From a virus: a DNA stretch of 49,604 nt. The notes beneath the pieces were generated by a model. That model had not been told where the DNA came from. It saw only the letters and a program-made list of their open reading frames with translations, and searched no databases. The position numbers and the translations under genes were made by a program. Location of the stretch: positions 1-49,604 of IMG/VR virus record IMGVR_UViG_3300045988_158846, one strand, 5' to 3'. Shown in pieces: positions 1 through 36,953 of the stretch; the first letter of the stretch is position 1, and each line of letters opens with the position of its first letter.

Positions 1-72
1 TATCAAATTTTTTTTAATTTGTCAAGCCGGTTGGGAATTTTTTTTATAATTTTTTTCCCAACCGGCGTGGGC

Positions 73-387
73 TTATTTCATTATCTGTGAAAATTCTTCT
101 GTGTGTCCGCAACTATCGCAAGTATAGTAATAGTCTTTTGAACCGCGATAATTTGTAGCACTTGAAAATTGATACTGACCACCGCATTCACAATATCCAT
201 TATTCCAGCGGTCATGATTGCTTTCTTGTTCTTTGTACAATAGAGTTGCAACGCCAAAACCAATAGCAATCGCAATCAGAACAGCAACAACTCTGCCGTG
301 CAAAGTTTCAGGTGCAACAATGGCAATCATCAGAGGAAGAATGGTCAAAACTAACCAAGCAAAATAAAATCCAGGATTTGTAAGCAT
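73..387 (-). CDS. small membrane protein with C-terminal CxC..CxxC zinc-ribbon-like motif (104 aa)
   Basis: ORF track; two hydrophobic helices in the N-terminal half; C-terminal half has CEC...CDSC Cys pairs; TAA stop. Confidence 0.5.
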   Translation of the reverse strand: MLTNPGFYFAWLVLTILPLMIAIVAPETLHGRVVAVLIAIAIGFGVATLLYKEQESNHDRWNNGYCECGGQYQFSSATNYRGSKDYYYTCDSCGHTEEFSQIMK

Positions 388-399
388 TTTATATTCTCC

Positions 400-717
400 T
401 TACAGCCAAATAGTTCCCTGACCACCAGCAGGCGGATTCAGGTTATCGCAGATAATTTCTGCTTCGCCCTCTCCATCTTTGTCTTCGTATTCAACATGGA
501 ATGTCAAATCTCCAACATTATCCAGATAATCCTGAATAGCGGCGATAATTGCGGCCATGTATTTTGCTTCTTTCTCTTGGTCTAACTGGTTAATTCTTTT
601 CTGTGCTAATGCAATCAGGGTCTGCAATTCTTCGGGCTTCTTCTTGTTTATGTAGTTGTGCAAGTCCTGCAAATTCATTGCTTCGACGATAGCGGCGTCC
701 ATAATCATTTTTATCAA
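400..717 (-). CDS. hypothetical acidic protein (105 aa)
   Basis: ORF track; preceded on the minus strand by an extended -10 promoter (TGTATAAT) and RBS AAGGAA; TAA stop. Confidence 0.5.
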   Translation of the reverse strand: MIKMIMDAAIVEAMNLQDLHNYINKKKPEELQTLIALAQKRINQLDQEKEAKYMAAIIAAIQDYLDNVGDLTFHVEYEDKDGEGEAEIICDNLNPPAGGQGTIWL

Positions 718-740
718 TTCCTTTCTTAATTTGTATCTTA

Positions 741-769
741 ATTATACACGATTTCAGGATTTTTGTCTA
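741..769 (-). promoter_or_regulatory. sigma70-like promoter (-35 TAGACA, 17-bp spacer, extended -10 TGTATAAT) for gene 400..717
   Basis: minus-strand reading 'tagacaaaaatcctgaaatcgtgtataat' immediately upstream of RBS and ATG. Confidence 0.45.
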
Positions 770-814
770 TTGGCAGAATAACCAAATTTGTGAATAAAAA
801 ATTGTGCAATGTGC

Positions 815-856
815 TAAAAATCTAAAAATCCTCGCGGCTGGACGTGGCCGCGAGGC
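815..856 (-). terminator. rho-independent terminator (GC hairpin cctcgcggc/gccgcgagg plus U-tract on minus strand)
   Basis: perfect 9-bp GC stem at 829..855 followed on the minus strand by TTTTTAGATTTTT; member of a repeated terminator family (also 2079..2121 and 4395..4421). Confidence 0.6.
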
Positions 857-892
857 TCAAAAAAATTAAGGGGAATTTTCCCCTTAATTATC

Positions 893-1062
893 ATCTGTAT
901 AATCATCAGGCTCGCAATCGCCCCACATGCTGTAGAAATCATCGCAATCATTCATCGGGTCTTCCAGAGTGCAAACGCAGGTTTCTTTCTGGCCATTGAT
1001 TGTGGTTTCATTTTTGAAGTAGGGGCAATCCCAACCATTTACTGGACAGTGGAAATGTTTCA
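893..1062 (-). CDS. Cys-rich mini-protein (56 aa; CP..C...CVC..C)
   Basis: own reading of the minus strand (MKHFHCPVNGWDCPYFKNETTINGQKETCVCTLEDPMNDCDDFYSMWGDCEPDDYTDDN); RBS AAAGGAAAGGA 8 nt upstream; below ORF-track size cutoff. Confidence 0.4.
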
Positions 1063-1092
1063 TGGTATCAATTCCTTTCCTTTGATAAACCT

Positions 1093-1121
1093 ATTGTATC
1101 ATAATAGGGCTTGTTTGTCAA
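1093..1121 (-). promoter_or_regulatory. consensus promoter TTGACA-17-TACAAT for gene 893..1062; -35 box sits inside the 11-bp palindrome 1103..1129
   Basis: minus strand reads 'ttgacaaacaagccctattatgatacaat'; perfect 17-bp spacer. Confidence 0.55.
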
Positions 1122-1130
1122 GCCCTATTT

Positions 1131-1352
1131 TTATTTTTGCCACAAAATCTTGAAGAGGGAGCTCAGAGCCATACGCATAGCAAAGATTTCCATGTATCCA
1201 AACTGCGGCAGGTTGAAATGCCATGCAAAGATATTCCAGCCCCACCAGATGAATGCGGCAGAGGCAAACCAGCCTGCGATTGCTACAATGACAGCACCAA
1301 TAATTGTACTTGCACTCTGGCCCTCAAACTTTTTGAAATCCATTTTTATCAA
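1131..1352 (-). CDS. small membrane protein (73 aa, two predicted TM helices, Trp-rich)
   Basis: ORF track; hydrophobic stretches IIGAVIVAIAGWFASAAFIWWGW; TAA stop. Confidence 0.45.
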   Translation of the reverse strand: MIKMDFKKFEGQSASTIIGAVIVAIAGWFASAAFIWWGWNIFAWHFNLPQFGYMEIFAMRMALSSLFKILWQK

Positions 1353-1389
1353 TTCCTTTCCTTATTATGGTAGGCTATTAAACCTACCA

Positions 1390-1803
1390 TTATTTAACCA
1401 TCGGGCAAACAGTCATTCCATTGTCTTTCATCCAGCAAATGAAATCTTCTGCGGGGAGTTCTTCGGATAATCTCTTGAAACTTAAATCAAAATCCAGCGG
1501 CTTATAAACTGTTTCGCGGAAAATTGGATAGCTGATTTTTTCCGGCTTGTAATCTTCGCCTTTCCAGTATTTCATGTTTTCAATGTGGATTTTCTTGATT
1601 CTTCTGTCAAAAACGCCACGCTTGATTGAACCATTGATGTATCTACTGACGATTTTAACCGCAAGGTCTGTTGTATCTTTGACTTCTTCTCTTGTATCTC
1701 TTGGAGTTTCAGGACAATAAACAAGTTGCGTACTCCAATTCAGAATAGGCTCTTGGCCGTCGTTCATGTTCATGTAAATGCGTTTCCAGTACAGATTTTT
1801 CAT
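1390..1803 (-). CDS. hypothetical protein (137 aa)
   Basis: ORF track; start overlaps the stop of upstream mini-gene (ATGA overlap); TAA stop. Confidence 0.5.
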   Translation of the reverse strand: MKNLYWKRIYMNMNDGQEPILNWSTQLVYCPETPRDTREEVKDTTDLAVKIVSRYINGSIKRGVFDRRIKKIHIENMKYWKGEDYKPEKISYPIFRETVYKPLDFDLSFKRLSEELPAEDFICWMKDNGMTVCPMVK

Positions 1804-1973
1804 TTTTCATTCTCCTTTAACCAATCAATAATCTTTTCACCACATTCGATGCAGTCAATGCCATAGATATCTTCATCATCTCGACACTTGAACATCAGAG
1901 GACAACAAGCACAATCATCAAAAGTCTCGACCCATTGCTCAATGCAGTATTTCAGTTTTTCGTCAGTGTTCAT
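1800..1973 (-). CDS. Cys-rich mini-protein (57 aa; CACC...C..C..C)
   Basis: own reading (MNTDEKLKYCIEQWVETFDDCACCPLMFKCRDDEDIYGIDCIECGEKIIDWLKENEK); RBS AAGGGAGG; translationally coupled to 1390..1803. Confidence 0.4.
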   Translation of the reverse strand: MNTDEKLKYCIEQWVETFDDCACCPLMFKCRDDEDIYGIDCIECGEKIIDWLKENEK

Positions 1974-2004
1974 TAGGTGTTTCCTCCCTTAACCTTGTAC
2001 CAAT

Positions 2005-2033
2005 AGTATAACAGGTATCGGGAAAATTGTCAA
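2005..2033 (-). promoter_or_regulatory. consensus promoter TTGACA-17-TATACT
   Basis: minus strand 'ttgacaattttcccgatacctgttatact' directly upstream of RBS AAGGGAGG and ATG at 1973. Confidence 0.6.
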
Positions 2034-2078
2034 CTGTCATTTTGCACAAAATTTGCGGGTAAAAATTGTGAAAAGTGC

Positions 2079-2121
2079 TGAAAATCTAAAATGCCTGCCG
2101 CGGCGTGGGATCGCGGCAGGC
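2079..2121 (-). terminator. rho-independent terminator; hairpin gcctgccgcggcgtgggatcgcggcaggc plus U-tract
   Basis: 29-nt hairpin with GC stem, followed on the minus strand by ATTTTAGATTTT; core 'ccgcggcgtgggatcgcgg' is repeated at 4395..4421. Confidence 0.65.
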
Positions 2122-2194
2122 TCAAATCAATTTTCCATTTAATTCCAATAGACAAGTAAGAAAATGGGAACCCAAATCTGGATTCCCAAATTTT

Positions 2195-2458
2195 TCAATA
2201 TTCCTGCAAATCTTCCATAATAAGGCCGCCGTTAATGGTATCAATACTATGGAGTTTATGGCCACTTTCTCCAATTCCTTCCAGGGCCTTACAAACATCA
2301 TTGTAAAAATCATCCGAATTTTCATCAAAATAATCATACAAATGATCGCTCAGTACTTCTCCCCAAGGAATATCGCCATAATCTTCCATTGGCTTCCACT
2401 TGTCATCAATTTCCACTTCTACGGGAACGATTTTTTCAACATAGGCTACAACTTTCAT
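2195..2458 (-). CDS. hypothetical acidic protein (87 aa)
   Basis: ORF track; TGA stop; sits between terminator 2079..2121 and upstream genes. Confidence 0.5.
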   Translation of the reverse strand: MKVVAYVEKIVPVEVEIDDKWKPMEDYGDIPWGEVLSDHLYDYFDENSDDFYNDVCKALEGIGESGHKLHSIDTINGGLIMEDLQEY

Positions 2459-2537
2459 TTTTTACCAATCCTTTCAGCCCAAGGCAATCAAAATTTTAAT
2501 GTCCGTTGCTTCTTCCAGCAAAATGTCAAGCTGTTCG

Positions 2538-2732
2538 TCATTCATTTGATTCTTCTCCCCAAGTGATAATTTTTGTGTAGGTCTTTACTCCGAACATGAG
2601 TCTTTTCATGTCCAAAATAAATGAATCGGCATCACGTTCTGTGCGGAAATCTAATTCATTGCTATAATACACTTTTTTTTCATCATAGCCTGAATATTTG
2701 ACAGTAATTTTTTTAGGAATCATCATCTTCAT
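2538..2732 (-). CDS. hypothetical protein (about 64 aa; start at internal Met MKMMIPKK)
   Basis: ORF track ORF trimmed to a Met whose ATG overlaps the 3' end of the upstream gene 2713..2931; TGA stop. Confidence 0.35.
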   Translation of the reverse strand: MKMMIPKKITVKYSGYDEKKVYYSNELDFRTERDADSFILDMKRLMFGVKTYTKIITWGEESNE

Positions 2733-2931
2733 CGTCTCCCCAAATGGCAACAGCCAAAGTATAACAGTCATACCGCAAATCAGATTGAATCTTAAACAGT
2801 TTATCACTTAATTCTTGTGCTTGTGTAAAATCATAAGGGTCTGAGATATTTTTCTTTGCACGGTAAACTTTTCCAGATAATTTTTCAATCTGATTTGCCA
2901 AGTCGGTAAGCTCTTTGAGAATCTCTTTCAT
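2713..2931 (-). CDS. hypothetical protein (72 aa, acidic C-terminus DDEDDDS)
   Basis: ORF track; TAA stop. Confidence 0.45.
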   Translation of the reverse strand: MKEILKELTDLANQIEKLSGKVYRAKKNISDPYDFTQAQELSDKLFKIQSDLRYDCYTLAVAIWGDDEDDDS

Positions 2932-2934
2932 AAT

Positions 2935-3108
2935 TTATTTCTCCCTTACCCAAGAAATAGTTTTTGTAATTCGGTTGACATCTGTTCTATTTTTGATTTT
3001 GTTAATAAAACGGTCTGCTTCTTCCTCTGTATCAAAAATCAATTCTTCAAAATAATTTACGTTCCAGAAATTTACACCAGCGTAATAAACTGTAATTTTC
3101 ATTTCCAT
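2935..3108 (-). CDS. hypothetical mini-protein (57 aa)
   Basis: own reading (MEMKITVYYAGVNFWNVNYFEELIFDTEEEADRFINKIKNRTDVNRITKTISWVREK); fills the gap between neighbouring genes; TAA stop. Confidence 0.35.
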   Translation of the reverse strand: MEMKITVYYAGVNFWNVNYFEELIFDTEEEADRFINKIKNRTDVNRITKTISWVREK

Positions 3109-3135
3109 TTTTATTTCCCCTTATTTGGATGGGCT

Positions 3136-3609
3136 TTATTCAAGCCCATCCAAAATTTCTTTCAGCACATCAAGGATATTTGTGGTCGTGGGGTCAATCG
3201 CCCCGCCCAAGTTCCAATCCCGACGCACTCTTGCATCATCATCAAAAATCAGGGCTTCTTCATCTGCGGCAAGTCGTGCGGCTTCAATCTTATGCTTCGG
3301 CGTTCCATAAGCTACACATCTTAGAGTATCAAATGGAAAACCATATTCTTTCAGCCAAGCCCGTTTTGCTTTTCTGACTTCATCATCATACTGCTTGTTC
3401 GGCTCTTTAGACAGCCAAGTGATAACTGCAACATTGACGCCGCAATTCTGCAAGCTACGGAGCAGACAGGCAAGTTCTGCCATATCAACCAGCGGTTCGG
3501 CGGTCTGATAGGGTGTAGGGTCATAGGCTCGAATTTTGTCAAGCCAATCTTCAACCCCATAGAGGTCAACCAGAGTTCCATCAAGATCGAAGCACAATTC
3601 CTTAATCAT
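3136..3609 (-). CDS. HAD-superfamily phosphatase (5'(3')-nucleotidase-like), 157 aa
   Basis: N-terminal motif I FDLDGTLVD (DxDGT) typical of haloacid dehalogenase-like hydrolases; size and context as in phage nucleotidases; TAA stop inside hairpin 3127..3151. Confidence 0.7.
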   Translation of the reverse strand: MIKELCFDLDGTLVDLYGVEDWLDKIRAYDPTPYQTAEPLVDMAELACLLRSLQNCGVNVAVITWLSKEPNKQYDDEVRKAKRAWLKEYGFPFDTLRCVAYGTPKHKIEAARLAADEEALIFDDDARVRRDWNLGGAIDPTTTNILDVLKEILDGLE

Positions 3610-3642
3610 TTTATCATTTCCTTTCTCTTTTGGAGTATCTTT

Positions 3643-3671
3643 ATTATAACAGGTTCAACCAGATTTGTCAA
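3643..3671 (-). promoter_or_regulatory. consensus promoter TTGACA-17-TATAAT for the HAD phosphatase gene
   Basis: minus strand 'ttgacaaatctggttgaacctgttataat', then RBS AGAGAAAGGAAA and ATG at 3609. Confidence 0.6.
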
Positions 3672-3832
3672 GTGTTTTCTTCAAATTCTTTTTGATTTCT
3701 TTTAAGCAATTCTTCAAGAATTGCTTTCCGAATATCTCTACCGTATTTACTTATATAAGGGGCGTCAAATGTATCAAATGATAACCGCAACATATCAATC
3801 AATTCAGCCGTAGTAGCTTTTTTAATTTCCAT
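3668..3832 (-). CDS. hypothetical mini-protein (about 54 aa from Met MEIKK; longer alternative start at 3877 overlaps upstream gene)
   Basis: ORF track ORF 3668..3877; TGA stop. Confidence 0.3.
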   Translation of the reverse strand: MEIKKATTAELIDMLRLSFDTFDAPYISKYGRDIRKAILEELLKRNQKEFEENT

Positions 3833-3833
3833 T

Positions 3834-4218
3834 TTACACCAGCTTGATATTTTTATAGTTTTTAATGACGCAGGCACTTGCGAATGGCATAATTGACATA
3901 TCTTTTACACCATTATTTACACTGATTTGGATATTTTTTCCATGGGCATAAGCATATCCAATTTCCCAAGCAGTCCCAGAATCAGAATACAGACCATCAT
4001 ATACAACAAACAAGATATCGCATTCTTGAATTGCGGCAACATCCATTTTGAAAACTTCTCTTGCCCAATCCTCTTGCGACATATCCCAAGCGTTCGGGAC
4101 TGTGTGTTCTTGCGGAACATATACATCATGCCCAAGCCGCCGGAAATCAGCCGCATATGAATCAATTCTTGATTTAGTTTCGGGACGGAAAAATGCACCC
4201 GCCATGTAAATTTTCATT
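3834..4218 (-). CDS. nucleoside 2-deoxyribosyltransferase-like protein (127 aa from MKIYMAG)
   Basis: N-terminal MKIYMAGAFF and SDSGTAWEIGYAYAHGK match the hallmark motifs of the nucleoside 2-deoxyribosyltransferase / Rcl family (catalytic Glu in the WEIGY context); RBS AAGGAAA; ORF-track start at 4313 judged too long. Confidence 0.6.
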
Positions 4219-4247
4219 TTTATCATTTCCTTTCCTTTTGTACCCTT

Positions 4248-4276
4248 ATTATAGCACAGGGTAAGCCAAATGTCAA
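4248..4276 (-). promoter_or_regulatory. consensus promoter TTGACA-17-TATAAT for the NDT-like gene
   Basis: minus strand 'ttgacatttggcttaccctgtgctataat'. Confidence 0.6.
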
Positions 4277-4394
4277 GACATAAAATGGAAAATGCTTTCG
4301 TCAAATTGCACAAACATTTTGGGAAAAATTTCCAAGGGTTGGGCTGGAAGGATTTGGAAAACTTTTTTACGTTAGCACTTTAATTTGCGAAATT

Positions 4395-4421
4395 CCGGCC
4401 GCGGCGTGGGATCGCGGCCGG
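4395..4421 (-). terminator. GC hairpin ccggccgcggcgtgggatcgcggccgg (terminator-family repeat; weak U-tract)
   Basis: shares the 19-nt core ccgcggcgtgggatcgcgg with hairpin 2093..2121; flanking conserved motif 'gtgct/tagcac' as at 815 and 2079. Confidence 0.45.
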
Positions 4422-4606
4422 CTCAAATGAATTCCCAAATTATGGGATTGCCAAAATTTTCCGCATTTGATTTTTCAACTGGAAAATTATAGAATTAAAA
4501 CAGAAATAAAAAATTATTTTTTTTATATAAAAAATTATATTATTTTTTTCTATAATTTTCAAATAAGAATTTCCTCCCAAAATATGGGAGGAAACTCAAA
4601 TTGTTT

Positions 4607-4816
4607 TTAGAATTTATAATGCGGAATTTCGGAAGAATCAAGAACTCTTGCTACAGGTTCATCATTTTCGACTAACATATAGTCTTTCCCGCAATGCTTC
4701 TGAATATGGGATTCAGCTTCTGAGCGGCACGAAGCCTCCACAAAAAACAGACGCGGCCAGTCTTTCGTAGGGAGGAAGTTAATTACCAGATACTTCCATG
4801 TTTTATATCCTTCCAT
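4607..4816 (-). CDS. hypothetical protein (69 aa)
   Basis: ORF track; TAA stop, followed by hairpin ttcctccca/tgggaggaa (4571..4595). Confidence 0.45.
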   Translation of the reverse strand: MEGYKTWKYLVINFLPTKDWPRLFFVEASCRSEAESHIQKHCGKDYMLVENDEPVARVLDSSEIPHYKF

Positions 4817-4819
4817 TTT

Positions 4820-5056
4820 TTACCACTCCTTAATATTTAATGTAGCTTCTACGGCATAGACTTTTGCATCATCGGGGAAACAGTCAAATTCTCCGGTAGC
4901 CAAATCAATCGCATTGATTTCATCACCTTCATTGTCAATACATTCTGTTTTCATATGAATTGTGTCTGTTCTTGGGTCGCGGAAAACAGTTCCAACTTCC
5001 AAGGAAGCGAAATGTCTAAATTCTTTTTTCTGTGCAAATTCAATTTTCATTTTCAT
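4820..5056 (-). CDS. hypothetical protein (78 aa)
   Basis: ORF track; RBS AGAAAGGAAAAATG; TAA stop. Confidence 0.45.
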   Translation of the reverse strand: MKMKIEFAQKKEFRHFASLEVGTVFRDPRTDTIHMKTECIDNEGDEINAIDLATGEFDCFPDDAKVYAVEATLNIKEW

Positions 5057-5065
5057 TTTTCCTTT

Positions 5066-5434
5066 CTATCTTTTAACTAATTTTTTTGCCATGTTCTTCT
5101 GAATTGCTTCATATACCACTTTCGGCATTTGCATTTGCCCATTATGTCTGAAAATGGCTGTTGCTTTGTTCATGTTGACATAATACAATGTGATTAGAAA
5201 TTCCATTCGGCTATCTGTAATCAAAATCACACCTGTGTTTGTAATAATCTGCCATTTGTCTTCATATCTGAATTTTGCTACAGGTTCGCCGATTCCTGTA
5301 TTCATTTGAATTTCAACATATCTGTCTAAGCGGTCATCCTTGATATGCTGACTAACTTGCAATTTTGTGATATCCATTTCTAATTTCCTCCTTTTGGAAG
5401 AGGGCTTTTCAGCCCTCATTCCTATCATCTTCAA
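5066..5434 (-). CDS. hypothetical protein (122 aa); apparent stop codon is TAG
   Basis: ORF track; stop = reverse complement of 5066..5068 (cta) = TAG; the TAG is in frame with the ATG of the downstream gene 4820..5056. Confidence 0.5.
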   Translation of the reverse strand: MKMIGMRAEKPSSKRRKLEMDITKLQVSQHIKDDRLDRYVEIQMNTGIGEPVAKFRYEDKWQIITNTGVILITDSRMEFLITLYYVNMNKATAIFRHNGQMQMPKVVYEAIQKNMAKKLVKR

Positions 5435-5609
5435 TGTAGCGATTCAGAAATTCTTCGCAGGTTTCCGCGGTTTCATCCATATGACAAGCGGAATAGAACG
5501 GGCAGGTGGCACAGTCGCTATGACCTGTAATAAGGTTGATAAGCATTTCCTTATCGAGAATTTCATTTGCAAAAGTAGACATTTTCATTTTCATTTCCCC
5601 CTTAATCAA
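5409..5609 (-). CDS. Cys-rich mini-protein (66 aa; C.TC....C, C)
   Basis: ORF track; TGA stop overlapping the start of 5066..5434. Confidence 0.4.
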   Translation of the reverse strand: MIKGEMKMKMSTFANEILDKEMLINLITGHSDCATCPFYSACHMDETAETCEEFLNRYIEDDRNEG

Positions 5610-5742
5610 TATAAGTAGACATTAGACAAACCCATTCGCGGCTCTCATACTTCGGGCTTCTCTCCCTAGCGTCTGCTAGGGAGTAGCCATATGCAGTCTC
5701 AGTTTCGCCCGTGTTGACGTTGTACATCTCAAATTCAAACAT
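5602..5742 (-). CDS. hypothetical mini-protein (46 aa from MFEFEMYN)
   Basis: strong RBS GAGGAGGA 6 nt upstream of this internal Met; the 5' extension of the ORF-track ORF overlaps the neighbouring gene out of frame. Confidence 0.35.
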   Translation of the reverse strand: MFEFEMYNVNTGETETAYGYSLADARERSPKYESREWVCLMSTYID

Positions 5743-5746
5743 GATG

Positions 5747-5923
5747 TTAGTCCTCCTCGATGCAACCGCAGACTGTGTACCACAGACCCATATACTCGTC
5801 ATAGTTGCGGGCATATGTGTTGCAGAAATCATTGATAGATTCCGTACTGAAATCATGGTCATTATCAATCCATTCGTTCAGCAGTTCAGCGATTCTTTCA
5901 GTAGTCATTTTTTGTATCTCCAT
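5747..5923 (-). CDS. hypothetical mini-protein (58 aa, ends CGCIEED)
   Basis: own reading (MEIQKMTTERIAELLNEWIDNDHDFSTESINDFCNTYARNYDEYMGLWYTVCGCIEED); downstream of promoter 5957..5985. Confidence 0.35.
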   Translation of the reverse strand: MEIQKMTTERIAELLNEWIDNDHDFSTESINDFCNTYARNYDEYMGLWYTVCGCIEED

Positions 5924-5956
5924 TTCATTTTTTATTCGTTCCCTTGGAACAATTAT

Positions 5957-5985
5957 ATATTAGCACACCCTATAGCAAATGTCAA
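5957..5985 (-). promoter_or_regulatory. consensus promoter TTGACA-17-TAATAT
   Basis: minus strand 'ttgacatttgctatagggtgtgctaatat'. Confidence 0.55.
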
Positions 5986-6150
5986 TAGGAAAGTCAAATT
6001 TTTTTATTCGTCAATATGCACAAAGATTCTGGAAATAAATGGTATGGAATTATATGTCATAAGCTGGTAGGATATGGGAAATGGAACATAATGTCAGATA
6101 TGGTAAAATTTGACTGGAAATATTCGGAATTGGTATTAAATGGAAAATGC

Positions 6151-6196
6151 GGGGCGCGGCGAGCCTGCTGTGGATATAGCAATTTCGCCGCGCCCC
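6151..6196 (-). terminator. GC hairpin (12-bp stem ggggcgcggcga/tcgccgcgcccc, 22-nt loop); probable terminator of gene 6299..6619
   Basis: perfect 12-bp GC stem; located 100 bp downstream of the minus-strand gene end. Confidence 0.4.
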
Positions 6197-6298
6197 GGTC
6201 AGGCACTTCATTTGATTAAAGTGCTAATGATGTAAAGAAGATGATTTGAAAAATGGACTGGAAACTGTTTCCAATTTCCAGCCCTTGGGATTTCAGGA

Positions 6299-6619
6299 TT
6301 AGACCGCCTGGTGTGCCAGATTATTCCAATCGTAAATGATGCCCTGAAGATGCTCACTTGCAACTTCTCTTGCTTGCCGCCGCGTATAGGTATGTTCGGT
6401 CAGGCTGACATAATACTTTCCATCTTTGAAACGAATCTGGCAGCTCTTTCCAAAATTTCGAGTCAAATGCTTCATCCATTCAACTGCTTTTTCTGGAGTG
6501 TCAAGGATAACTGTGGCGGTATTCACTTGAAAACCGCCCTTGTACTTTTTGATATTGCCGTTCTTAAGGTTCAGGGTATCGCCATCCTGCATTTTCCGAA
6601 TAGTTCTCACGTTAATCAT
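6299..6619 (-). CDS. hypothetical protein, paralog A of a tandem duplicate pair (106 aa)
   Basis: ORF track; N-terminus MINVRTIRKMQDGDTLNLKNGNIKKYKGGFQV aligns with MINIRTIKKLADGDGLTLKNGKIKRYKSGYQV of 6642..6953. Confidence 0.55.
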   Translation of the reverse strand: MINVRTIRKMQDGDTLNLKNGNIKKYKGGFQVNTATVILDTPEKAVEWMKHLTRNFGKSCQIRFKDGKYYVSLTEHTYTRRQAREVASEHLQGIIYDWNNLAHQAV

Positions 6620-6641
6620 TTTTTATTTCTCCTCTCAAATA

Positions 6642-6953
6642 TTAAATATAAAGGCAGGCAGGATTTCCACGCCATCTGTAAATTGAAAGCTGGTTACATT
6701 TCTTGCCAATTTCAACTGCCTCGCGTTTAGTGGAAACTCGTTTGGAAATGTCAATGTAATATCTGCCATTCTCAACCCAAACGCCGCATGTGCCCTTAAA
6801 CTCTCGAACCGCCTGTATTGCCATTTCAGGGCTTATGACTTCAACTCCATTAGTGGCCACCTGGTAGCCACTCTTGTACCTCTTGATTTTTCCATTCTTA
6901 AGGGTCAGACCATCGCCGTCAGCCAGCTTTTTGATTGTGCGAATGTTAATCAT
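6642..6953 (-). CDS. hypothetical protein, paralog B of the tandem duplicate pair (103 aa)
   Basis: ORF track; clear similarity to 6299..6619 over the first ~60 residues. Confidence 0.55.
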   Translation of the reverse strand: MINIRTIKKLADGDGLTLKNGKIKRYKSGYQVATNGVEVISPEMAIQAVREFKGTCGVWVENGRYYIDISKRVSTKREAVEIGKKCNQLSIYRWRGNPACLYI

Positions 6954-6968
6954 ATAAGATTCTCCTTT

Positions 6969-7139
6969 TCAAATTTCACTTGTAAGAACAGCACACATTT
7001 CACCGTTCATATGCTTATAGACATTGTACTCGATGCCCTTAAAGGAATCAGTATAGAGATAATTCCAATAGATACCATATACATAAGAGAATGGCTTTAC
7101 TGGCAAGATGCCATCCAACAGGGTCTTGATGGTTTCCAT
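6969..7139 (-). CDS. hypothetical mini-protein (56 aa)
   Basis: own reading (METIKTLLDGILPVKPFSYVYGIYWNYLYTDSFKGIEYNVYKHMNGEMCAVLTSEI); start 1 nt after the stop of the upstream gene. Confidence 0.35.
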   Translation of the reverse strand: METIKTLLDGILPVKPFSYVYGIYWNYLYTDSFKGIEYNVYKHMNGEMCAVLTSEI

Positions 7140-7140
7140 T

Positions 7141-7293
7141 TTAATCCTCCATCATCACGAAGAAATTCCAGCTACTGTATTCAGGTCTGCCGCCAGCAGG
7201 GTTATTATGGCGGACCACCTGACAAAATGAAACAGAAATCCAGAGCATAATGATAATGCCGGACAGAGTTAACGCAAGTTTGAGATTTTTCAT
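7141..7293 (-). CDS. small membrane mini-protein (50 aa)
   Basis: own reading (MKNLKLALTLSGIIIMLWISVSFCQVVRHNNPAGGRPEYSSWNFFVMMED); N-terminal hydrophobic helix. Confidence 0.35.
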   Translation of the reverse strand: MKNLKLALTLSGIIIMLWISVSFCQVVRHNNPAGGRPEYSSWNFFVMMED

Positions 7294-7361
7294 TTTGAAA
7301 TTTTCCTTTCGACTTTTGGATTCATGTGCTCGGTTGAATTGTCAGAGAGCGGTAGAGGGAC

Positions 7362-7661
7362 TCAAATGTCCCTCACCACTAACGTCAGGTGGTCTGCCGT
7401 ATGCTCGATTGCCTGTACAATCTGATAGCTTGTGAAATGGTAAGTTGTCAGCAGGCCAGAAGTAAATACCGCAGACCGACTGCCGAACTCTACAATTTCC
7501 AGCTCCTGCATGATGTAGAGCTTTTCTTCGAGTTCACGGTAGAAGGCAGGCTGCCAAGGGCAGTTGAATGTGCTGGATAATTGCCATCTGCAATAATCAG
7601 TTTGAACATTGTTCTTATCAAGAAAACGGATTTCAGCATAGGGATTTCGTGCAGTTGCCAT
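7362..7661 (-). CDS. hypothetical protein (99 aa)
   Basis: ORF track; TGA stop. Confidence 0.45.
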   Translation of the reverse strand: MATARNPYAEIRFLDKNNVQTDYCRWQLSSTFNCPWQPAFYRELEEKLYIMQELEIVEFGSRSAVFTSGLLTTYHFTSYQIVQAIEHTADHLTLVVRDI

Positions 7662-7695
7662 ATTGTATCATCCTTTCTATTGGAAGCCAAGGGTT

Positions 7696-7884
7696 TTAAC
7701 CCTTGGCTCTGTAGATTTCTTTGCCTTTGGTGAACTGGCTCATGACTTCACCAGTCTCCATGTCAATGACATCTCTGTCATTCCGTGCCCATAAGCTGTA
7801 GGCATGTGCCATGGCTCGTGCTGCGGTCAGGCTATGGTAGATTGTGCCATACTGACCAGTCGTATGATTATAGATAGAGTACAT
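7696..7884 (-). CDS. hypothetical protein (62 aa from MYSIYNH; longer ORF-track start less likely)
   Basis: RBS AAAGGGGA 6 nt upstream of this Met; TAA stop inside palindrome gccaagggtt/aacccttggc (7685..7707). Confidence 0.4.
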   Translation of the reverse strand: MYSIYNHTTGQYGTIYHSLTAARAMAHAYSLWARNDRDVIDMETGEVMSQFTKGKEIYRAKG

Positions 7885-7919
7885 GATGTTATCCCCTTTC
7901 TGATGTTCTGGTTGAGCTA

Positions 7920-8279
7920 TTAGCTCAACCAGATCTGTTTGCTCGTTGCGATAGACCAGCGACGCCGACTTGCTGCCAGCCGCTCGACTTCCCACTTGAC
8001 CCATTCAGAGCAACCGCATTCGTCCATATCAGCGAAAATACGCTCCAGCTCCATATGGTCGCTCTTCATTGAGTGCTCGGTATAGTTTGCCTTAGCAATC
8101 TGCCGTGCAATATAGTCCTTCTGGTCCAGCAGCTTGTGGAAGGTGGCCTTGCCATCAGGCTTAGAGAAATTAACCCTGTTCATGGCGTCGTTGATGTGAA
8201 GGATAGTGTTCATCATCGCTTCCTTCCGGATTGCTCTTCGGTTGATACGGTTCATAGTTTTACCTCCATATATTGTCAA
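7920..8279 (-). CDS. hypothetical protein (119 aa)
   Basis: ORF track; TAA stop. Confidence 0.5.
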   Translation of the reverse strand: MTIYGGKTMNRINRRAIRKEAMMNTILHINDAMNRVNFSKPDGKATFHKLLDQKDYIARQIAKANYTEHSMKSDHMELERIFADMDECGCSEWVKWEVERLAASRRRWSIATSKQIWLS

Positions 8280-8309
8280 AAGTGTTGTTAGGTGTACAGG
8301 TGAAGAAGC

Positions 8310-8714
8310 TTATGCTTCTTCACCATATAGCAGGTCATGCAGTTTGTAGAAGAAGTCTTCGAGCATATGTTCAAAGATATCTGTCCATTCCTCGGCTTCT
8401 TCTTGCAGGTCTGTCAGCTTTTCATAGGCGGCTTCCCATTCTACGCAGGGATTCCCAGCCTCGGCGTCCGGTCGATAGTCGATATGCTCAAGGTCATATT
8501 CAGCACTATCGATAGCCCAAGTCAGGTTATCCCATGCGTCGATATTCTTTGCCGCATACTCATGATACTTATCCAGCATCCCATCATAGTCGAAGCTACT
8601 GCCAAGCATATGGTACCGCTTGACATATGCTATCAAGTCCTGTGCCTGCTCTGCTAACTCTGCCTTGATAGCCTTTTGTTTGTCCTGTTCGCTTGTTTTA
8701 ATTGTATATACCAT
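8310..8714 (-). CDS. hypothetical acidic protein (134 aa); first gene of the leftward early array
   Basis: ORF track; TAA stop within palindrome tgaagaagc/gcttcttca (8300..8322). Confidence 0.5.
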   Translation of the reverse strand: MVYTIKTSEQDKQKAIKAELAEQAQDLIAYVKRYHMLGSSFDYDGMLDKYHEYAAKNIDAWDNLTWAIDSAEYDLEHIDYRPDAEAGNPCVEWEAAYEKLTDLQEEAEEWTDIFEHMLEDFFYKLHDLLYGEEA

Positions 8715-8740
8715 AATTATATCAATCCTTTACATATTAT

Positions 8741-9100
8741 TTGACTGTTAGTTGTCAGCTGTCCGTGTCGCTATTTGCCGTAGGCGTTGGACTGCCCTAC
8801 AGCTTGCACCGCACCTTCCATGTTCTACCATTGCGTCCGCGGTGCGGTGCAGACGCTTGGCTTAAATTTACTTTTCAAGGTGCAAGCGGTTCGGTGCTGT
8901 CCGCGTCTGCCGGTCATTTTACGTCATTCAAGAGAACTTGCTGTGTTTGTCTCTGTCCTCTTGACATTTTGAATTGTACCACACGCGGTTCTGTTTGTCA
9001 AGAACTTTTTTTCATTTTTTCTTGACTTTTTTTCGCTTGCCTTGCGGCTTGCTTTTCGTTGTCCCGTGGGTCACTTTCTGATTCTAATTATAGCGGCTAT
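8741..9100. other. GC-rich (~55% GC) structured non-coding region between the two arms; candidate ncRNA, origin or packaging site
   Basis: no credible ORF (plus-strand ORFs 8741..9025 and 8787..8972 have no RBS and atypical composition); long hairpin 8805..8851 (11-bp stem tgcaccgcacc/ggtgcggtgca); repeated gtcaagaact at 8997 and 9110. Confidence 0.35.
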
Positions 9101-9251
9101 TTCTGAAAAGTCAAGAACTAATTTTGAAAAAATCGAATTATTTTTTTAGGGGGTTAGTCGTATCTAACTTGCTTCACTTGAATAAAGCAAGACAATAGAC
9201 TTTGATCCTTTAGTCAAATGAAGTGGGGGGGCGGTGTTTCGTGAAAAAAAA

Positions 9252-9337
9252 ATGGAAAAAATGGAAAAATCTTCCTGCCTGGAAAAATAATTTCTAAACC
9301 CATTTTCAATTCTAAAAAACGAAGATAATTTCTAAAC
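9252..9337. repeat. iteron-like direct repeats: (a)atggaaaaa x2 plus tggaaaaa, and 13-nt ataatttctaaac x2 (9287..9299, 9325..9337)
   Basis: seen directly in sequence; AT-rich non-coding stretch next to G-rich tract aagtgggggggcgg (9221..9236). Confidence 0.45.
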
Positions 9338-9354
9338 TAGAATACGGATAAATT

Positions 9355-9390
9355 TATAAAAAAAAATAAGCGGGAAAATAATTTCCCGCT
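9355..9390 (-). terminator. rho-independent terminator of the leftward regulatory operon (hairpin gcgggaaaataatttcccgc plus 10-nt U-tract)
   Basis: perfect hairpin 9370..9389 followed on the minus strand by TTATTTTTTTTTT. Confidence 0.65.
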
Positions 9391-9423
9391 TTAATATTAT
9401 TCTTTAATCACTCGATATCCATT

Positions 9424-9666
9424 CTATTCCAAGGTTTCTTTTGCAAGAGCTACGGCATCACTGGCTTCAGGACATTCAATACATAAAAAAGTTTTACCAT
9501 CTACTTCGTCAATATAAAATTCATAATTATGACCATTTACCATATGCAATTCTTCACGAAGTTTAGAAGGAATCATTAAACGTCCAACTGTATCGAGTTT
9601 TCTTGTATAAGCTGTTTTCAGCATTAAACTCACTCCTTTCTTTTTAATTGGGAGAGTGCGAGCCAT
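9424..9666 (-). CDS. AbrB/MazE/SpoVT-family DNA-binding protein (80 aa); apparent stop codon TAG
   Basis: GRLMIPSKLREEL matches the swapped-hairpin AbrB-type DNA-binding motif (GRVVIP.E.R..L); stop = reverse complement of 9424..9426 (cta) = TAG. Confidence 0.55.
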   Translation of the reverse strand: MARTLPIKKKGVSLMLKTAYTRKLDTVGRLMIPSKLREELHMVNGHNYEFYIDEVDGKTFLCIECPEASDAVALAKETLE

Positions 9667-9744
9667 CCCACAGATTTTATAACTTATTTTACAAAATTTT
9701 TTATCTCATGTCAAAAATTTTTTTTAACAAAATCTTAACATAAA

Positions 9745-10182
9745 TTAGTCAAAAGGAACAATACCTTCATTAGGGTCAATTACTCCTCGTTCTTGATGGA
9801 ACCGATAATTAGTATATCCATTTTTAAACTTATAAACTTCTACTTCAGGTATAATATATTGGTCTTCTTTATCTACAATTTTAGAACCAAGAGTAATACC
9901 GATTGGATCGCCTTCTTCTTCATATTTAGATAAATCAATAGACATTAAATCTTTTTTGTTTTTAATAACATGGACTATTCCAGGCCCAATATATTTTTCT
10001 TCTAGCCCTTTATTATATTCAATATATTTCTTATCGCTTTTAAAATTCATAAAATCTTCAAGCGCTTTAGTATAATCTTTATAGATTTTTGCTTCAATAA
10101 TTTTATCATAAATAAATCTGGCCGCGCATCCTAATCCAAGTACCGCACCACTACCTAAAAGAAGCCCATGAACAAACTTCAT
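9745..10182 (-). CDS. membrane-anchored protein (145 aa from MKFVHG; N-terminal TM helix)
   Basis: RBS GAGGGAAG upstream of the second Met; hydrophobic LLLGSGAVLGLGCAA; TAA stop. Confidence 0.45.
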   Translation of the reverse strand: MKFVHGLLLGSGAVLGLGCAARFIYDKIIEAKIYKDYTKALEDFMNFKSDKKYIEYNKGLEEKYIGPGIVHVIKNKKDLMSIDLSKYEEEGDPIGITLGSKIVDKEDQYIIPEVEVYKFKNGYTNYRFHQERGVIDPNEGIVPFD

Positions 10183-10217
10183 TAAATCACTTCCCTCAAT
10201 TTTCAAATATAATATAT

Positions 10218-10373
10218 TTACTTTTTCTTACGCTCTTTGGTAGGATTATAAGCTCCTTGCTGTTTAGGGTTTTCGCCCCACATAATTTGATAAATAGCTC
10301 TTGTTGCACTATTAGTCGCTCTACGTTTAGCTTTAGAAGCCATACTGCCTAAAATACCACGAGGTTTTCTCAT
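10218..10373 (-). CDS. small basic protein (51 aa, Lys/Arg-rich)
   Basis: own reading (MRKPRGILGSMASKAKRRATNSATRAIYQIMWGENPKQQGAYNPTKERKKK); first gene downstream of leftward promoter 10403..10432. Confidence 0.4.
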   Translation of the reverse strand: MRKPRGILGSMASKAKRRATNSATRAIYQIMWGENPKQQGAYNPTKERKKK

Positions 10374-10402
10374 AAAATTATCTCCTTTAATTTTATATAA
10401 AT

Positions 10403-10432
10403 ATTATATAAAAATTTTCTATAATTGTCAAT
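10403..10432 (-). promoter_or_regulatory. leftward consensus promoter TTGACA-17-TATAAT (divergent partner of 10486..10514)
   Basis: minus strand 'ttgacaattatagaaaatttttatataat' followed by RBS AAAGGAGA and ATG 10373. Confidence 0.6.
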
Positions 10433-10485
10433 TTTACATTTTATATAATTTTTTTACCAAATACCGTAAAAATTTTTGGCCTTGG

Positions 10486-10514
10486 TTGACTTTGCAAATT
10501 TTTTGTGTTATAAT
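10486..10514 (+). promoter_or_regulatory. rightward consensus promoter TTGACT-17-TATAAT heading the structural module; same extended motif as 26934..26962
   Basis: 'ttgactttgcaaattttttgtgttataat'; motif ttgactttg.aaatttttt.tgttataat is shared with the second copy. Confidence 0.6.
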
Positions 10515-10542
10515 TTTTTTAGAAGGATTGGAGGTATTAATC

Positions 10543-11607
10543 TTGATAAAATTAGATTATACTCTTGAAACTCCTGAAGAAAGAAATGAATTAGTAAAAA
10601 AAATCTTAGAAGAAAATCCAAATCCTAATGAAAAGTATTTAGAAATTCTTGCAGATTATCTAATTCTATGTATGGAGAAACAAGAAAAAAAAGAAAAGAA
10701 AATATTAACTGATAATAGATTAATGACAGTTAATAAGCGTGAAACTTCATTTGAAGGTCTTGTTTCCCAGTTAGAGAATGGTGAAGATGGTATATATAAT
10801 TTAATTAATAGTGATAAAAATATGATATTTTAGCCAAAAGTTACAATTACAAAAAAAGATTTAGAAGAAATTCCGAGCTTAAAACAATTAAAAGACGCTA
10901 TTACAACTTGGGAAGCAAAAATGAAAGTAGTGAGTGGTAAAGATGCTTTCACTATAAAAAAAGCCTTAATAGAAATGCGTAAAGACCAATATGTTATTAA
11001 AAATGCTTATCGGAAGCCAATAGTACCAGTAAAACTTACACGGTCCAAATATAAAATTAAGTTAGATGAAGATGTAAAAATATTTGATGATGATGGATAT
11101 CCAATTCCAGAAGGCGTCTCATTGATGAACCCTGAAATTTGCTCTTGCATTTTATGCAATTATTCTCGGTTAAAAGAAGACAGTTGGGACCGTTTTGAAG
11201 ATGATACTTGGTATCTCATCTATGATTTTGAAAATATTTGTGATGAGGCTTTGGCTGAATATCCTATGTTAATGCGTATTGTAGAATGTAAAATTGATGG
11301 ATTACAAAATATAGAAATTCAAAAAATTTTACAAGAAGAATTTAATATTACTCATAGTTTAGAATATATATCAAGTTTATTCCGCAATAAAATACCAAAG
11401 CTTATTGCCGATAAAGCTGTTGATAAATATTTAGAGTGGTATTATACAACTCAAGAAAAAGGCAAATATAAAAAATGTAGTCGATGTGGGCAAATCAAAT
11501 TAGCTCACAATAAATATTTTTCCTATAACAAAACAAGTAAAGATGGATTTTATAGTATATGTAAAAAATGCCGAAATAGTTCTCGCAAAGAAAAAATGAA
11601 ATCCTAA
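10543..11607 (+). CDS. hypothetical protein with C-terminal zinc-ribbon (CSRCG...CKKC), ~354 aa, TTG start, one in-frame TAG at 10831
   Basis: ORF-track ORFs 10486..10833 and 10921..11607 are in the same frame and joined by a single TAG; RBS GGAGG 8 nt before TTG. Confidence 0.45.
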
Positions 11608-27636: not shown

Positions 27637-27680
27637 CTTTATATATATAGAAATTTATAATGAGAGAAAGGAGCTATTTT

Positions 27681-36600: not shown

Positions 36601-36953
36601 CTAATGGTCAAGGATTTGGACCGGACAATGGCAGAATTATTAAAGTTCATCCTAAAGAATTAATTCTTAACCAAAAGGATACTTCTAATATACTTCGTGC
36701 AGTTGATATTGTCCGTAATATGAATGACTGGGTTGATAAGCAAGTTTAGTCAATGGTTAATTATGGATAGACTAAATTAGGTAATTTAATTGATAAAGCC
36801 ACTCCTCCTGTTTATGAAACTCAACCAATTAAGCAAGAAGTCACCATCCAAGCTGATTTCCCAGGAGTAACTGATCATTATGAAATTGAAGAAGCATTAT
36901 CTAATCTTAGTAATAATGCTGCTCAATATATAAGTGCTAATAAATCTAAATGA
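27681..36953 (+). CDS. tail tape measure protein, ~3090 aa, roughly 130 in-frame TAG codons, ends TGA
   Basis: single frame (all TAG-free ORF-track pieces 31032, 33162, 35931 share frame 0 with ATG 27681); no in-frame TAA/TGA where read; long alpha-helical/coiled-coil composition typical of TMPs; poly-Gly tract at 34010..34035; RBS AGAAAGGAG. Confidence 0.8.

Follow-up and report, generated by a model that had tools for sequence, protein, structure and literature searches.

Repeated stem-loop/promoter modules as likely sites of cassette exchange in the small-gene arm of a TAG-recoded phage genome

Promoter-early stem-loops (PeSLs) are composite terminator/promoter motifs that are repeated in variable regions rich in open reading frames (ORFs) that lack known relatives, and they have been described from the T4-like myoviruses RB49/phi1, T4/PST and KVP40/nt-1 (PMC2839356, PMC4122927). 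Reporter assays in RB49/phi1 have shown PeSL stem-loops to be effective terminators and PeSL promoters to be active, and experiments have also demonstrated mini-circles, which arise by recombination of neighbouring motifs and can be packaged; in these papers PeSLs are recorded solely from T4-like myoviruses infecting Gram-negative hosts (PMC2839356, PMC4122927). PeSL sequences differ among T4 sub-lineages, so that the term names a kind of element and not a sequence family. Here, a repeated stem-loop/promoter module is described from IMG/VR virus record IMGVR_UViG_3300045988_158846, positions 1 to 49,604 of that record being referred to as the window (the whole stretch of 49,604 nucleotides (nt) that was analysed). 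The module recurs in the left arm of the window (1-8714), which is packed with small genes, and it is judged likely that this arm is a variable, probably early region shuffled by recombination between the module copies.

The module resembles PeSLs in several respects. Each is a small composite motif that unites a stem-loop with an AT-rich stretch and a near-consensus early promoter of the sigma-70 type; both occur in many copies in regions packed with small genes that lack known relatives; in both cases close relatives differ by insertions, deletions and replacements that are bounded by the motif; and in both the motif sequence is lineage-specific. In the window the composite of promoter and stem-loop is seen in three copies of a type-1 module (A, B and C), in a type-2 module and in an element at the left edge. 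An AT-rich stretch precedes the -35 box, the copies are numerous within a variable small-gene arm, and relatives show chimeric modules and motif-bounded insertions and deletions (indels), the enrichment of breaks at module junctions being modest (p = 0.025, from data that are not independent). The T4-like myovirus setting is absent, the terminase being nearest to those of Geobacillus E3, Enterococcus, SPbeta-like and phAss-1 phages. Given this non-T4 terminase and a tape-measure-sized ORF, shared ancestry with the T4 PeSLs is not claimed, only membership of the same kind of element.

The differences are equally clear. The window phage is a TAG-recoded, Firmicutes-type, siphovirus-like phage and thus belongs to an unrelated lineage and host phylum. 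Its module is longer (about 130 nt) and has a spacer with an inverted TTGCACAA/TTGTGCAA pair; its stem is a covarying 9-bp GC helix with a partly conserved 9-nt loop, whereas PeSL stems are of the G-run/C-run or A3G3/C3T3 type. A second design in the window places the -35 box inside the hairpin, and repeated ribosome-binding leaders also serve as junctions. PeSL activity is known by experiment, and that of the window module is predicted from sequence. Shuffling of this module type is known for T4-like phages, and for the present lineage it is not reported in the literature cited.

Two further systems invite comparison. The host-takeover module of Bacillus phage SPO1, whose products shut off functions of the host, consists of genes 37-60 (PMC6873191; Stewart et al. 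1998 as cited there). Like the left arm, it is a set of about 25 small genes, early in SPO1 and probably so here, of a Firmicutes-type phage, arranged in short operons with strong host-type promoters and ribosome-binding sites. The parts of the SPO1 literature drawn on here (PMC6873191) describe neither a repeated composite module nor module-mediated shuffling, and they place the SPO1 genes in the terminal redundancy, whereas the window is an arbitrary slice of a genome. No window protein is similar to a known takeover protein. The other system is phAss-1 of the 'Phassvirus' group, the nearest group that has a name; this gut siphovirus is TAG-recoded, its tape measure proteins are about 3150 amino acids (aa) long, and its predicted host belongs to the Clostridia (PMC10607447). 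Both phAss-1 and the window phage have large siphovirus-type genomes that are TAG-recoded in their structural genes, with a tape-measure-sized ORF of about 3100 aa (PMC10607447), and their terminases are related, though distantly (41% identity). Words for promoters, terminators, repeats or a standard-code early region do not occur in the phAss-1 paper (PMC10607447).

The mechanism proposed for the left arm is as follows. Small genes, mostly without known relatives, would be packaged in short units that are each bounded by a stem-loop/promoter module. The stem-loop would end or attenuate transcription arriving from upstream, and the host RNA polymerase would start anew at the adjacent promoter, which is close to the sigma-A/sigma-70 consensus, in many cases TG-extended, and has AT-rich sequence ahead of it; each promoter would lead into a leader of standard form that contains a strong ribosome-binding site. 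The modules would be paralogous copies of one ancestral element that is conserved across the clade and exists in at least two designs: in type 1 a hairpin is followed by a 60-110-nt spacer and the promoter, and in type 2 the hairpin contains the -35 box. Homologous recombination between modules, either in one genome or between co-infecting relatives, could then delete, insert, replace or reorder cassettes, and each exchanged cassette would stay correctly expressed. Recombination between modules is suggested by the recurrence of the same 20-130-nt regulatory sequences every 0.3-2.5 kb. Terminator and promoter activity, early timing, a recombination machinery at work and a role in host takeover are inferred here.

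The window belongs to a large phage genome organised as two divergent arms. The left arm, the subject of the analysis, reads leftward. Its minus strand carries 28 ORFs, each 23-157 codons in length, that occupy 81% of the interval from 73 to 8714, fall into about seven transcription units and use the standard genetic code; nearly all 28 are preceded by a strong Shine-Dalgarno sequence. A first-pass annotation made from the letters and their predicted reading frames had seen here an early region of repeated promoter-gene-terminator units. The gene set, the promoter excess and the hairpin modules bear this description out, as they do the number and strand of the genes; the lower size limit had been put at 46 codons. 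Recognisable families were found in no more than two left-arm proteins, a nucleoside 2-deoxyribosyltransferase (3834-4217, minus strand) and a HAD-type nucleotidase-like protein (3136-3609, minus strand), so that 25 of the 27 proteins scanned have no family assignment.

Module anatomy, promoter excess, the repeat family and its spread in the clade, stem covariation, chimeras and the end points of indels were established computationally. The type-1 module spans about 130 nt on the coding (minus) strand. It begins with TTTGAGCC and a GC stem of 9-10 bp that closes a loop of 8-9 nt. A T tract comes next, which reads ATTTTTAGATTTTT in copies A and B, and then spacer, promoter and leader. The spacer is conserved as AGCAC..TTGCACAATTTTTT...AAATTTTGTGCA and is AT-rich upstream of the -35 box, with AATTTTTT and AAATTTT runs kept across copies, and its motifs TTGCACAA ... 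TTGTGCAA form an inverted repeat just upstream of that box. The promoter part consists of the -35 box, 17 nt and the -10 box, and the leader ends in a strong ribosome-binding site. All three window copies lie within 692-4441, and a profile search found none in the 39-kb structural arm.

Module A (692..885, minus strand) has TTTGAGCC at 854-861, its hairpin at 830-855 (-19.5 kcal/mol, z score -5.1), T tract and spacer at 770-829 and the promoter TAGACA-17-TATAAT at 741-769, whose leader with ribosome-binding site runs to the start codon at 708. Module B (1957..2154, minus strand) has TTTGAGCC at 2119-2126, the hairpin at 2093-2121 (-22.4 kcal/mol, z -4.3), the spacer motif TTGTGCA at 2043-2049 and the promoter TTGACA-17-TATACT at 2005-2033, with a leader to the start codon at 1973. 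These two copies are complete. In module C (4216..4441, minus strand) the spacer is longer and the T tract poor, reading AATTTCG; its TTTGAGCC lies at 4420-4427, its hairpin at 4395-4421 (-20.3 kcal/mol, z -2.6), TTGTGCA at 4307-4313 and an exact promoter at 4248-4276, followed by a leader to the start codon at 4217. The profile E-values of the copies are 5e-53 (B), 5e-42 (A) and 4e-13 (C). By itself TTGTGCA is not enriched in the window (6 occurrences vs 5.7 expected), and only its fixed intergenic position is of note. The leader AAGGAAAGGAATTGATAAAAATG, which comprises ribosome-binding site and start codon, is found at 706..731 and again at 1341-1366, 3602-3625 and 4215-4240 (all minus strand).

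The hairpins of B and C share 21 identical nt within a 53-nt repeat at 85% identity, whereas the longest exact repeat in 200 shuffles of 1-8714 averaged 13.3 nt and never exceeded 17 nt. The identical core of 19 nt that had been reported for these two hairpins is therefore real and slightly longer. A shared flanking motif had been claimed for several hairpins; the flank gtgctNaaaatctaaaa is present at two hairpins only (811 and 2075), allowing up to three mismatches adds none, and two copies are no more than chance would give. The true signal is the whole 130-nt module, since the similarity is not confined to the hairpin cores and extends from the hairpin to the promoter. Independent GC-rich terminators, which the first-pass annotation had set up as the contrary case, would not be expected to be so alike in cores and flanks, and the copies are best regarded as homologous copies of one element. 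Searches against Rfam, at the gathering threshold for the whole window and at E <= 1 for 1-10600, returned nothing credible.

A fourth intergenic region, D (5924..6298, minus strand), has the type-1 layout with a different and longer hairpin. It contains a gene-proximal terminator at 6255-6284, a long GC hairpin at 6150-6197 (-37 kcal/mol, z -5.5), TTGTGCA at 6017-6023 and the promoter TTGACA-17-TAATAT at 5957-5985. The flanks of hairpin D (6129-6148 and ATTAAAGTGCTAA) match copies B (19/20 nt) and C (13/13 nt) in inverted orientation, the segments 6129-6148 and 6205-6225 corresponding to the 5′ flank of B at 2130-2149 and the 3′ flank of C at 4365-4380. This arrangement suggests an inversion, or the insertion of a hairpin element in reverse.

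Promoters are far denser on the minus strand than chance would allow. Ten minus-strand sites in 1-10500 match TTGACA-17-TATAAT in at least 11 of 12 positions, as against a mean of 0.21 (standard deviation 0.47, maximum 3) in 500 dinucleotide-preserving shuffles of the same stretch, and the same scan found no such site on the plus strand. Seven promoters had been listed as exact or nearly so, and all seven exist: those at 3643, 4248 and 10403 match in 12/12 positions, those at 741, 1093 and 2005 in 11/12, and the one at 5957 in 10/12. The promoter at 10403 had been assigned to the other arm; it shares the minus strand with the others and sits in the divergent control region. Additional 11/12 sites on the same strand start at 4534, 8973, 9087 and 9686. 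A TG extension before the -10 box, typical of Firmicutes promoters, occurs in 7 of 11 sites with at least 11/12 matches, and the site at 5957, which matches in 10/12, has it as well. Of the 12 sites with at least 10/12 matches a single one is intragenic (2217-2244, a 10/12 site), and six of the eight promoters listed as parts directly precede a gene, the exceptions being 4534-4562 and 9087-9114. Among those outside the modules, the exact promoter at 3643..3671 lies upstream of gene 3609-3136, and the pair at 8973-9001 and 9087-9114 (8973..9114, minus strand) starts the first and longest unit (genes 8714 to 6299), which begins with a 250-nt untranslated leader.

Covariation shows that the type-1 hairpin is under selection as a structure. 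Thirty-three distinct copies from the window and its relatives could be aligned almost without gaps, and 97.6% of their stem cells are paired, as against 68% in shuffles. Compensatory changes occur in eight of the nine stem pairs (79 cells); the covariation score of 0.686 compares with 0.167 in shuffles and was reached in 0 of 500 of these, and a shift of the 3′ partner by one, two or three columns abolishes the signal. In close relatives, orthologues of hairpin C differ by G-C to A-T double changes (CCGGCCGCG/CGCGGCCGG vs CCAGCCGCG/CGCGGCTGG). As a separate observation, the loop varies in parallel in B and C within a genome, reading CCCACGC in the window (2093-2121 and 4395-4421) and CCAACGC in L084 (11328-11402 and 9137-9358), L080 and L078, which could reflect gene conversion among the copies or a concerted change with some factor by which the loop is recognised.

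The relatives were collected in several ways. The terminase as query gave 77 related IMG/VR loci at 51-98% identity, and an early gene (3609-3136) gave seven loci that reach past the left end of the window; gene 1803-1390 as query gave no confirmed relative locus. A metagenome scan with the 21-nt core added closer relatives, about nine of its loci being true relatives and many others unrelated GC-rich contigs. The exact 19-nt hairpin core has no match in IMG/VR, the orthologous hairpin of the relatives having compensatory differences, and a megablast search with 1-9000 against 50,697 phage records gave no match. A profile built from A and B recovers the third window copy and two to five copies in each of L078-L084, these counts referring to stretches of 10-20 kb. 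With 18 copies in the profile, 47 of 85 sequences (the window and 84 loci) are matched, and L095 and L092 carry at least seven copies in 12 kb and 6 kb, respectively. In loci that can be oriented by the terminase, nearly every match, and every strong one, lies on the strand opposite to it.

In distant relatives (terminase about 76% identical) a full TTGACA-17-TATAAT promoter stands directly against the 5′ side of the module hairpin. This promoter-hairpin-promoter arrangement was seen in L013, L016-L018, L024, L026, L028-L030, L048, L058, L061 and L066 (for example L029:2684-2825, minus strand); transcription from the first promoter would start at or in the stem. The equivalent in the window is degenerate (TTGGAA-17-TTGAGC at 2121-2149).

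Evidence for recombination comes from comparison of the close relatives. Three modules are chimeras of the window types: L078_13266 is 89% identical to copy A in its hairpin and spacer half and 96% identical to B in its promoter and leader half, L081_12351 is 83% identical to A and then 93% to B, and L081_11371 is 82% identical to B and then 88% to A. With both A|B and B|A chimeras present, all four combinations of hairpin and promoter exist. The B-type promoter stands ahead of gene 1973 in some genomes and of gene 1803 in others, and the module ahead of gene 708 is of type 1 in some genomes and of type 2 in others, while a further genome has none there; gene order is shuffled between relatives, and the same gene (w708, w1803) is found behind different module types. 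Genes 3832, 1343 and 1063 have no counterpart in the seven IMG/VR relatives.

The end points of indels lie in repeated regulatory sequence. L083 lacks a 635-nt block comprising genes 1343 and 1063 with their two modules, and its junction falls in the 23-26-nt leader AAGGAAAGGAATTGATAAAAATG, which is directly repeated in the window at 706-731 and 1341-1366. Gene 3108 is missing from L130, which at 94.5% identity over 2.9 kb is the closest relative, and here too the junction falls within a repeated leader that carries a ribosome-binding site. In L130 and L079 an extra gene, x13, lies between two promoters where the window and L084 have a single one, and the promoter at 3643-3671 therefore looks like a promoter-promoter recombinant. 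Overall, adjacency of neighbouring window genes is broken in 22 of 30 informative comparisons at module-bearing junctions and in 67 of 134 at others (odds ratio 2.75, p = 0.025). The earlier proposal that cassettes were mobilised by recombination between terminator repeats is thus upheld as regards mobilisation, and cassette gain or loss at repeated regulatory sequence, which a comparison with related phages had been expected to reveal, is seen in L083, L130 and x13. Crossovers are not restricted to the terminator hairpins; they also fall in the spacer, in promoters (the promoter-to-promoter excision of x13) and in the repeated ribosome-binding leader, and many indels lie at module-free junctions. 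A scan of 30 window proteins (28 of the arm plus 10373 and 9624; 5742, 2545 and 10182 left out) and 10 larger proteins of relatives found no integrase, transposase, HUH nuclease or homing endonuclease, which makes general homologous recombination the economical mechanism.

Several points weigh against this interpretation. Terminator and promoter activity are predictions. In a simple scan for intrinsic terminators (GC-rich stem, loop of 3-8 nt, at least five T immediately downstream) hairpin A was the only type-1 hairpin flagged; B fails on loop length alone (9 nt) and C on both loop and T tract, and 9-nt loops in B and C together with the poor T tract of C are atypical for efficient intrinsic terminators. 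In addition, an ordinary short-loop terminator that closes the preceding gene lies 10-70 nt upstream of every type-1 hairpin, so that a terminator role of the latter may be redundant. The terminator hairpin just upstream of hairpin A is of AT/GGGAA type (864..889, minus strand), and its equivalents lie at 2165-2188, 4567-4597 and, as mentioned for region D, 6255-6284. Identity between copies A and B of the window is no higher than 53-63% in the segments compared, so that they are doubtful partners for efficient recombination within this one genome; it is more plausible that relatives exchange DNA at orthologous copies, which are nearly identical. The junction test is weak because the genomes are related and the counts are not independent, and as half of the module-free junctions are also broken, modules are not the sole points of exchange.

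This last point also favours a different, though unlikely, explanation: the modules may be alike only because they serve the same machinery (the RNA polymerase, a factor acting on the TTGCACAA ... TTGTGCAA spacer, and the needs of termination), with no special role in exchange, and the mosaic would then result from illegitimate recombination filtered by selection. The placement of the inverted repeat just upstream of the -35 box would suit such a factor, and an AbrB/MraZ-type DNA-binding protein, 100% conserved in four relatives, is encoded beside the region. Shared demands account poorly for a similarity of about 130 nt that includes positions without obvious function, for chimeric modules with crossovers inside the element, and for indel junctions exactly within repeated regulatory sequence; nor do they explain why the flanks of B and C recur inverted around hairpin D or why the loop variant (CCCACGC in the window, CCAACGC in L084) changes in parallel in B and C. 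Shuffling between homologous modules is accordingly preferred.

Similarly unlikely is the idea that the type-1 hairpin serves mainly as a protein recognition element, be it for antitermination, for a factor of RNA processing or stability, or for a nuclease that initiates recombination; such a role would be compatible with module-mediated shuffling. A stem of 9 bp and a loop of 9 nt are fixed in the 33 distinct copies despite complete turnover of the stem sequence. The loop follows the consensus nACGnnCnn, positions 2-4 being ACG in most copies, and ACG occurs in 26 of 33 loops; pairs 11-37, 16-32 and 17-31 (C-G) vary little or not at all, and conservation extends to the 5′ flank TTyGrGC. The canonical terminator already present upstream of each copy, and the consensus promoter set directly against the hairpin in distant relatives, point the same way. 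The conserved loop and pair positions may reflect inheritance from one ancestral copy as well as recognition by a factor. Reading with the genes, a T tract comes after most copies; no candidate binding protein was identified, and Rfam holds no match. In its stronger form, in which the hairpin is a dedicated recognition element for a phage or host factor and not just a duplicated terminator, the proposal is rather improbable. Such a factor could govern read-through of the early cassettes, through antitermination or RNA processing that switches during infection, or could initiate exchange at the DNA level, and if this were true the clade would own a purpose-built system of cassette exchange or timing instead of relying on passive repeat recombination.

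The type-2 module (1059..1136, minus strand) consists of a hairpin at 1103-1129 with an 11-bp stem and a 5-nt loop, the -35 box TTGACA (1116-1121) lying in stem and loop, a -10 box TACAAT at 1093-1098 and a leader with ribosome-binding site that runs to the start codon at 1063. Relatives both close and distant have the same design, and many of their loci contain it twice or three times. Alignment with MAFFT was unusable for counting pairs because the variable loop length shifts the 3′ arms out of register, and arm complementarity was therefore counted directly, with a shuffle control. The perfect stem averages 9.2 bp over at least 19 distinct copies, as against 2.8 bp with the 3′ part shuffled; among the 19 copies compared all 5′ arms differ, and 13 of the 19 have a perfect stem of at least 8 bp. 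Arm variants include ATAGGGC, AAAGGGC, AAGGGGC, TAGGGG, AGAGGGC and others, several of them within one genome, and sequence conservation is limited to the part tied to the -35 box (GGGCTTGACA). The first-pass annotation had correctly noted a palindrome containing a -35 box, and had taken it for a sign of operator control. Overlap with the -35 box is indeed the classical position of a repressor operator, and this reading is nonetheless very improbable, because arms that differ yet remain complementary, with several variants coexisting in one genome, indicate a selected stem-loop and not a sequence-specific operator. On the coding strand a run of A precedes and few T follow the type-2 stem-loop, so that the strongest terminator-like reading concerns antisense transcription.

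A dedicated site-specific mover, either integron-like (attC sites with an integrase) or resembling miniature inverted-repeat transposable elements or repetitive extragenic palindromic elements (with a transposase), is hardly credible: single-gene cassettes separated by imperfect GC-rich palindromes that fold as hairpins are indeed common to attC arrays and the left arm, and one copy is inverted, yet the scan described above found no integrase or other recombinase domain, the crossover points vary (spacer, promoter, leader), the cassettes carry their own promoters, unlike those of integrons, the hairpin lacks the R/L box architecture, and the L083, L130 and x13 junctions, as far as they were read, show neither target-site duplications nor terminal inverted repeats, no dedicated search having been run.

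The element at the left edge (1..72, minus strand) has its hairpin (28-69) directly against a -35 box TTGACA (22-27), and its -10 box lies beyond the window edge. Relatives read TTGACA-17-TATAAT at this place. Positions 1-67 are 100% identical in the otherwise divergent L082, where the flanks are only 72-80% identical. As the left edge cuts through a promoter, the window is an arbitrary slice of the genome.

The contrast in codon usage between the two arms bears on timing. In the left arm none of 2301 codons is an in-frame TAG, and TAG serves once as a stop (gene 5377-5066). The right arm, which holds only plus-strand genes from about 10.3 kb (10294) to the right end at 49604, is readable only with TAG as a sense codon; it has 256 in-frame TAG in 11630 codons (2.2%), never as a stop. 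With TAG read as glutamine it encodes a large terminase (12840-14591), a portal protein (15054-16742) and further virion structural proteins. An ORF of 3097 aa at 27660-36953, with 109 in-frame TAG, is probably the tape measure protein, judged by its size. A tRNA scan of the whole window found none and hence no suppressor tRNA in the window. The nearest terminases of deposited phages are those of an unannotated human faecal phage record (61%), Geobacillus E3 (48%), Enterococcus (45%) and phAss-1 (41%), SPbeta-like phages also being among the nearest. These Firmicutes-related terminases fit the sigma-A-type, TG-extended promoters and the strong ribosome-binding sites, and a large Firmicutes-type siphovirus that uses TAG as a sense codon in its late genes is the best explanation of the whole.

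In recoded phages, recoding has been proposed to confine translation to late genes (bioRxiv 10.1101/2021.08.26.457843). The absence of TAG from the left arm, together with its host-type promoters, fits expression before the code switch. Early timing is a plausible reading of the host-type promoters, the small genes without known relatives and the lack of TAG, and this set of small genes with strong host-type promoters and ribosome-binding sites is of the SPO1 kind. The high density of host-type promoters had been noted at the outset and taken as typical of an immediate-early host-takeover region. That density stands, and the immediate-early role appears plausible; since only two left-arm proteins are recognisable, 'host takeover' is an analogy with the SPO1 module and not a result.

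The detailed parallels with PeSLs suggest that self-expressing cassettes exchanged by way of their own regulatory signals are a general, independently evolved route by which large lytic phages diversify their accessory set of early genes. The mechanism, hitherto associated with T4-like phages, would thereby be widened to an uncultured, Firmicutes-type gut lineage. In practical terms, the module profile may serve as a marker of the early variable arm in metagenomic contigs of this clade, and the modules may supply strong natural promoters and terminators, as predicted, for gut Firmicutes. The sharp contrast in TAG usage (none vs 2.2% of codons) provides a clean case in which to ask whether recoding separates early from late translation.

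Some neighbouring features deserve mention. The DNA-binding protein mentioned above, of 66 aa and encoded at 9424-9624 (minus strand), outside the small-gene arm, has an MraZ/AbrB-type domain (E 1.9e-5) and its own consensus promoter at 9686-9714, and its gene also terminates in TAG. Longer paralogues (about 150 aa, with a MazE/AbrB domain) are found inside variable cassettes of L078, L080 and L084. The protein is a candidate regulator of the early promoters.

The promoter-like site TTGAAA-17-TATAAT at 4534..4562 (minus strand) is separated from hairpin C, downstream of it, by some 110 nt that contain no gene, and a transcript that started here and ended at hairpin C could be an ORF-less RNA of about 130 nt. 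The site is part of a very AT-rich palindromic stretch (4502-4551, within 4440-4606, minus strand) that is nearly invariant in L001 and L059, where the neighbouring DNA is about 92% identical.

Several genes within operons have a stem-loop of another kind, which lies over the stop codon directly before the next ribosome-binding site and has no T tract in the coding direction (3124-3154, 1366-1389, 5398-5420, 7684-7707, 7907-7933 and 8299-8330); several of these score as terminators of the opposite strand in the scan. Base composition also sets the arm apart, GC content being 36-47% in the small-gene arm, where it climbs toward 8-9 kb, and 23-40% in the rest of the window, with most 1-kb windows below 34%. 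The module hairpins stand out as islands of about 90% GC.

The leader at 8715-8966 (minus strand), between the promoter at 8973-9001 and gene 8714, consists of 250 nt of GC-rich untranslated sequence. Over 166 nt it shares 88.6% identity with L082 and L075, and the protein encoded downstream is only 35% identical there. The leader has no Rfam match, and it may be a new cis-regulatory leader or a small RNA; its consensus fold comprises several stems, in which two pairs show compensatory changes.

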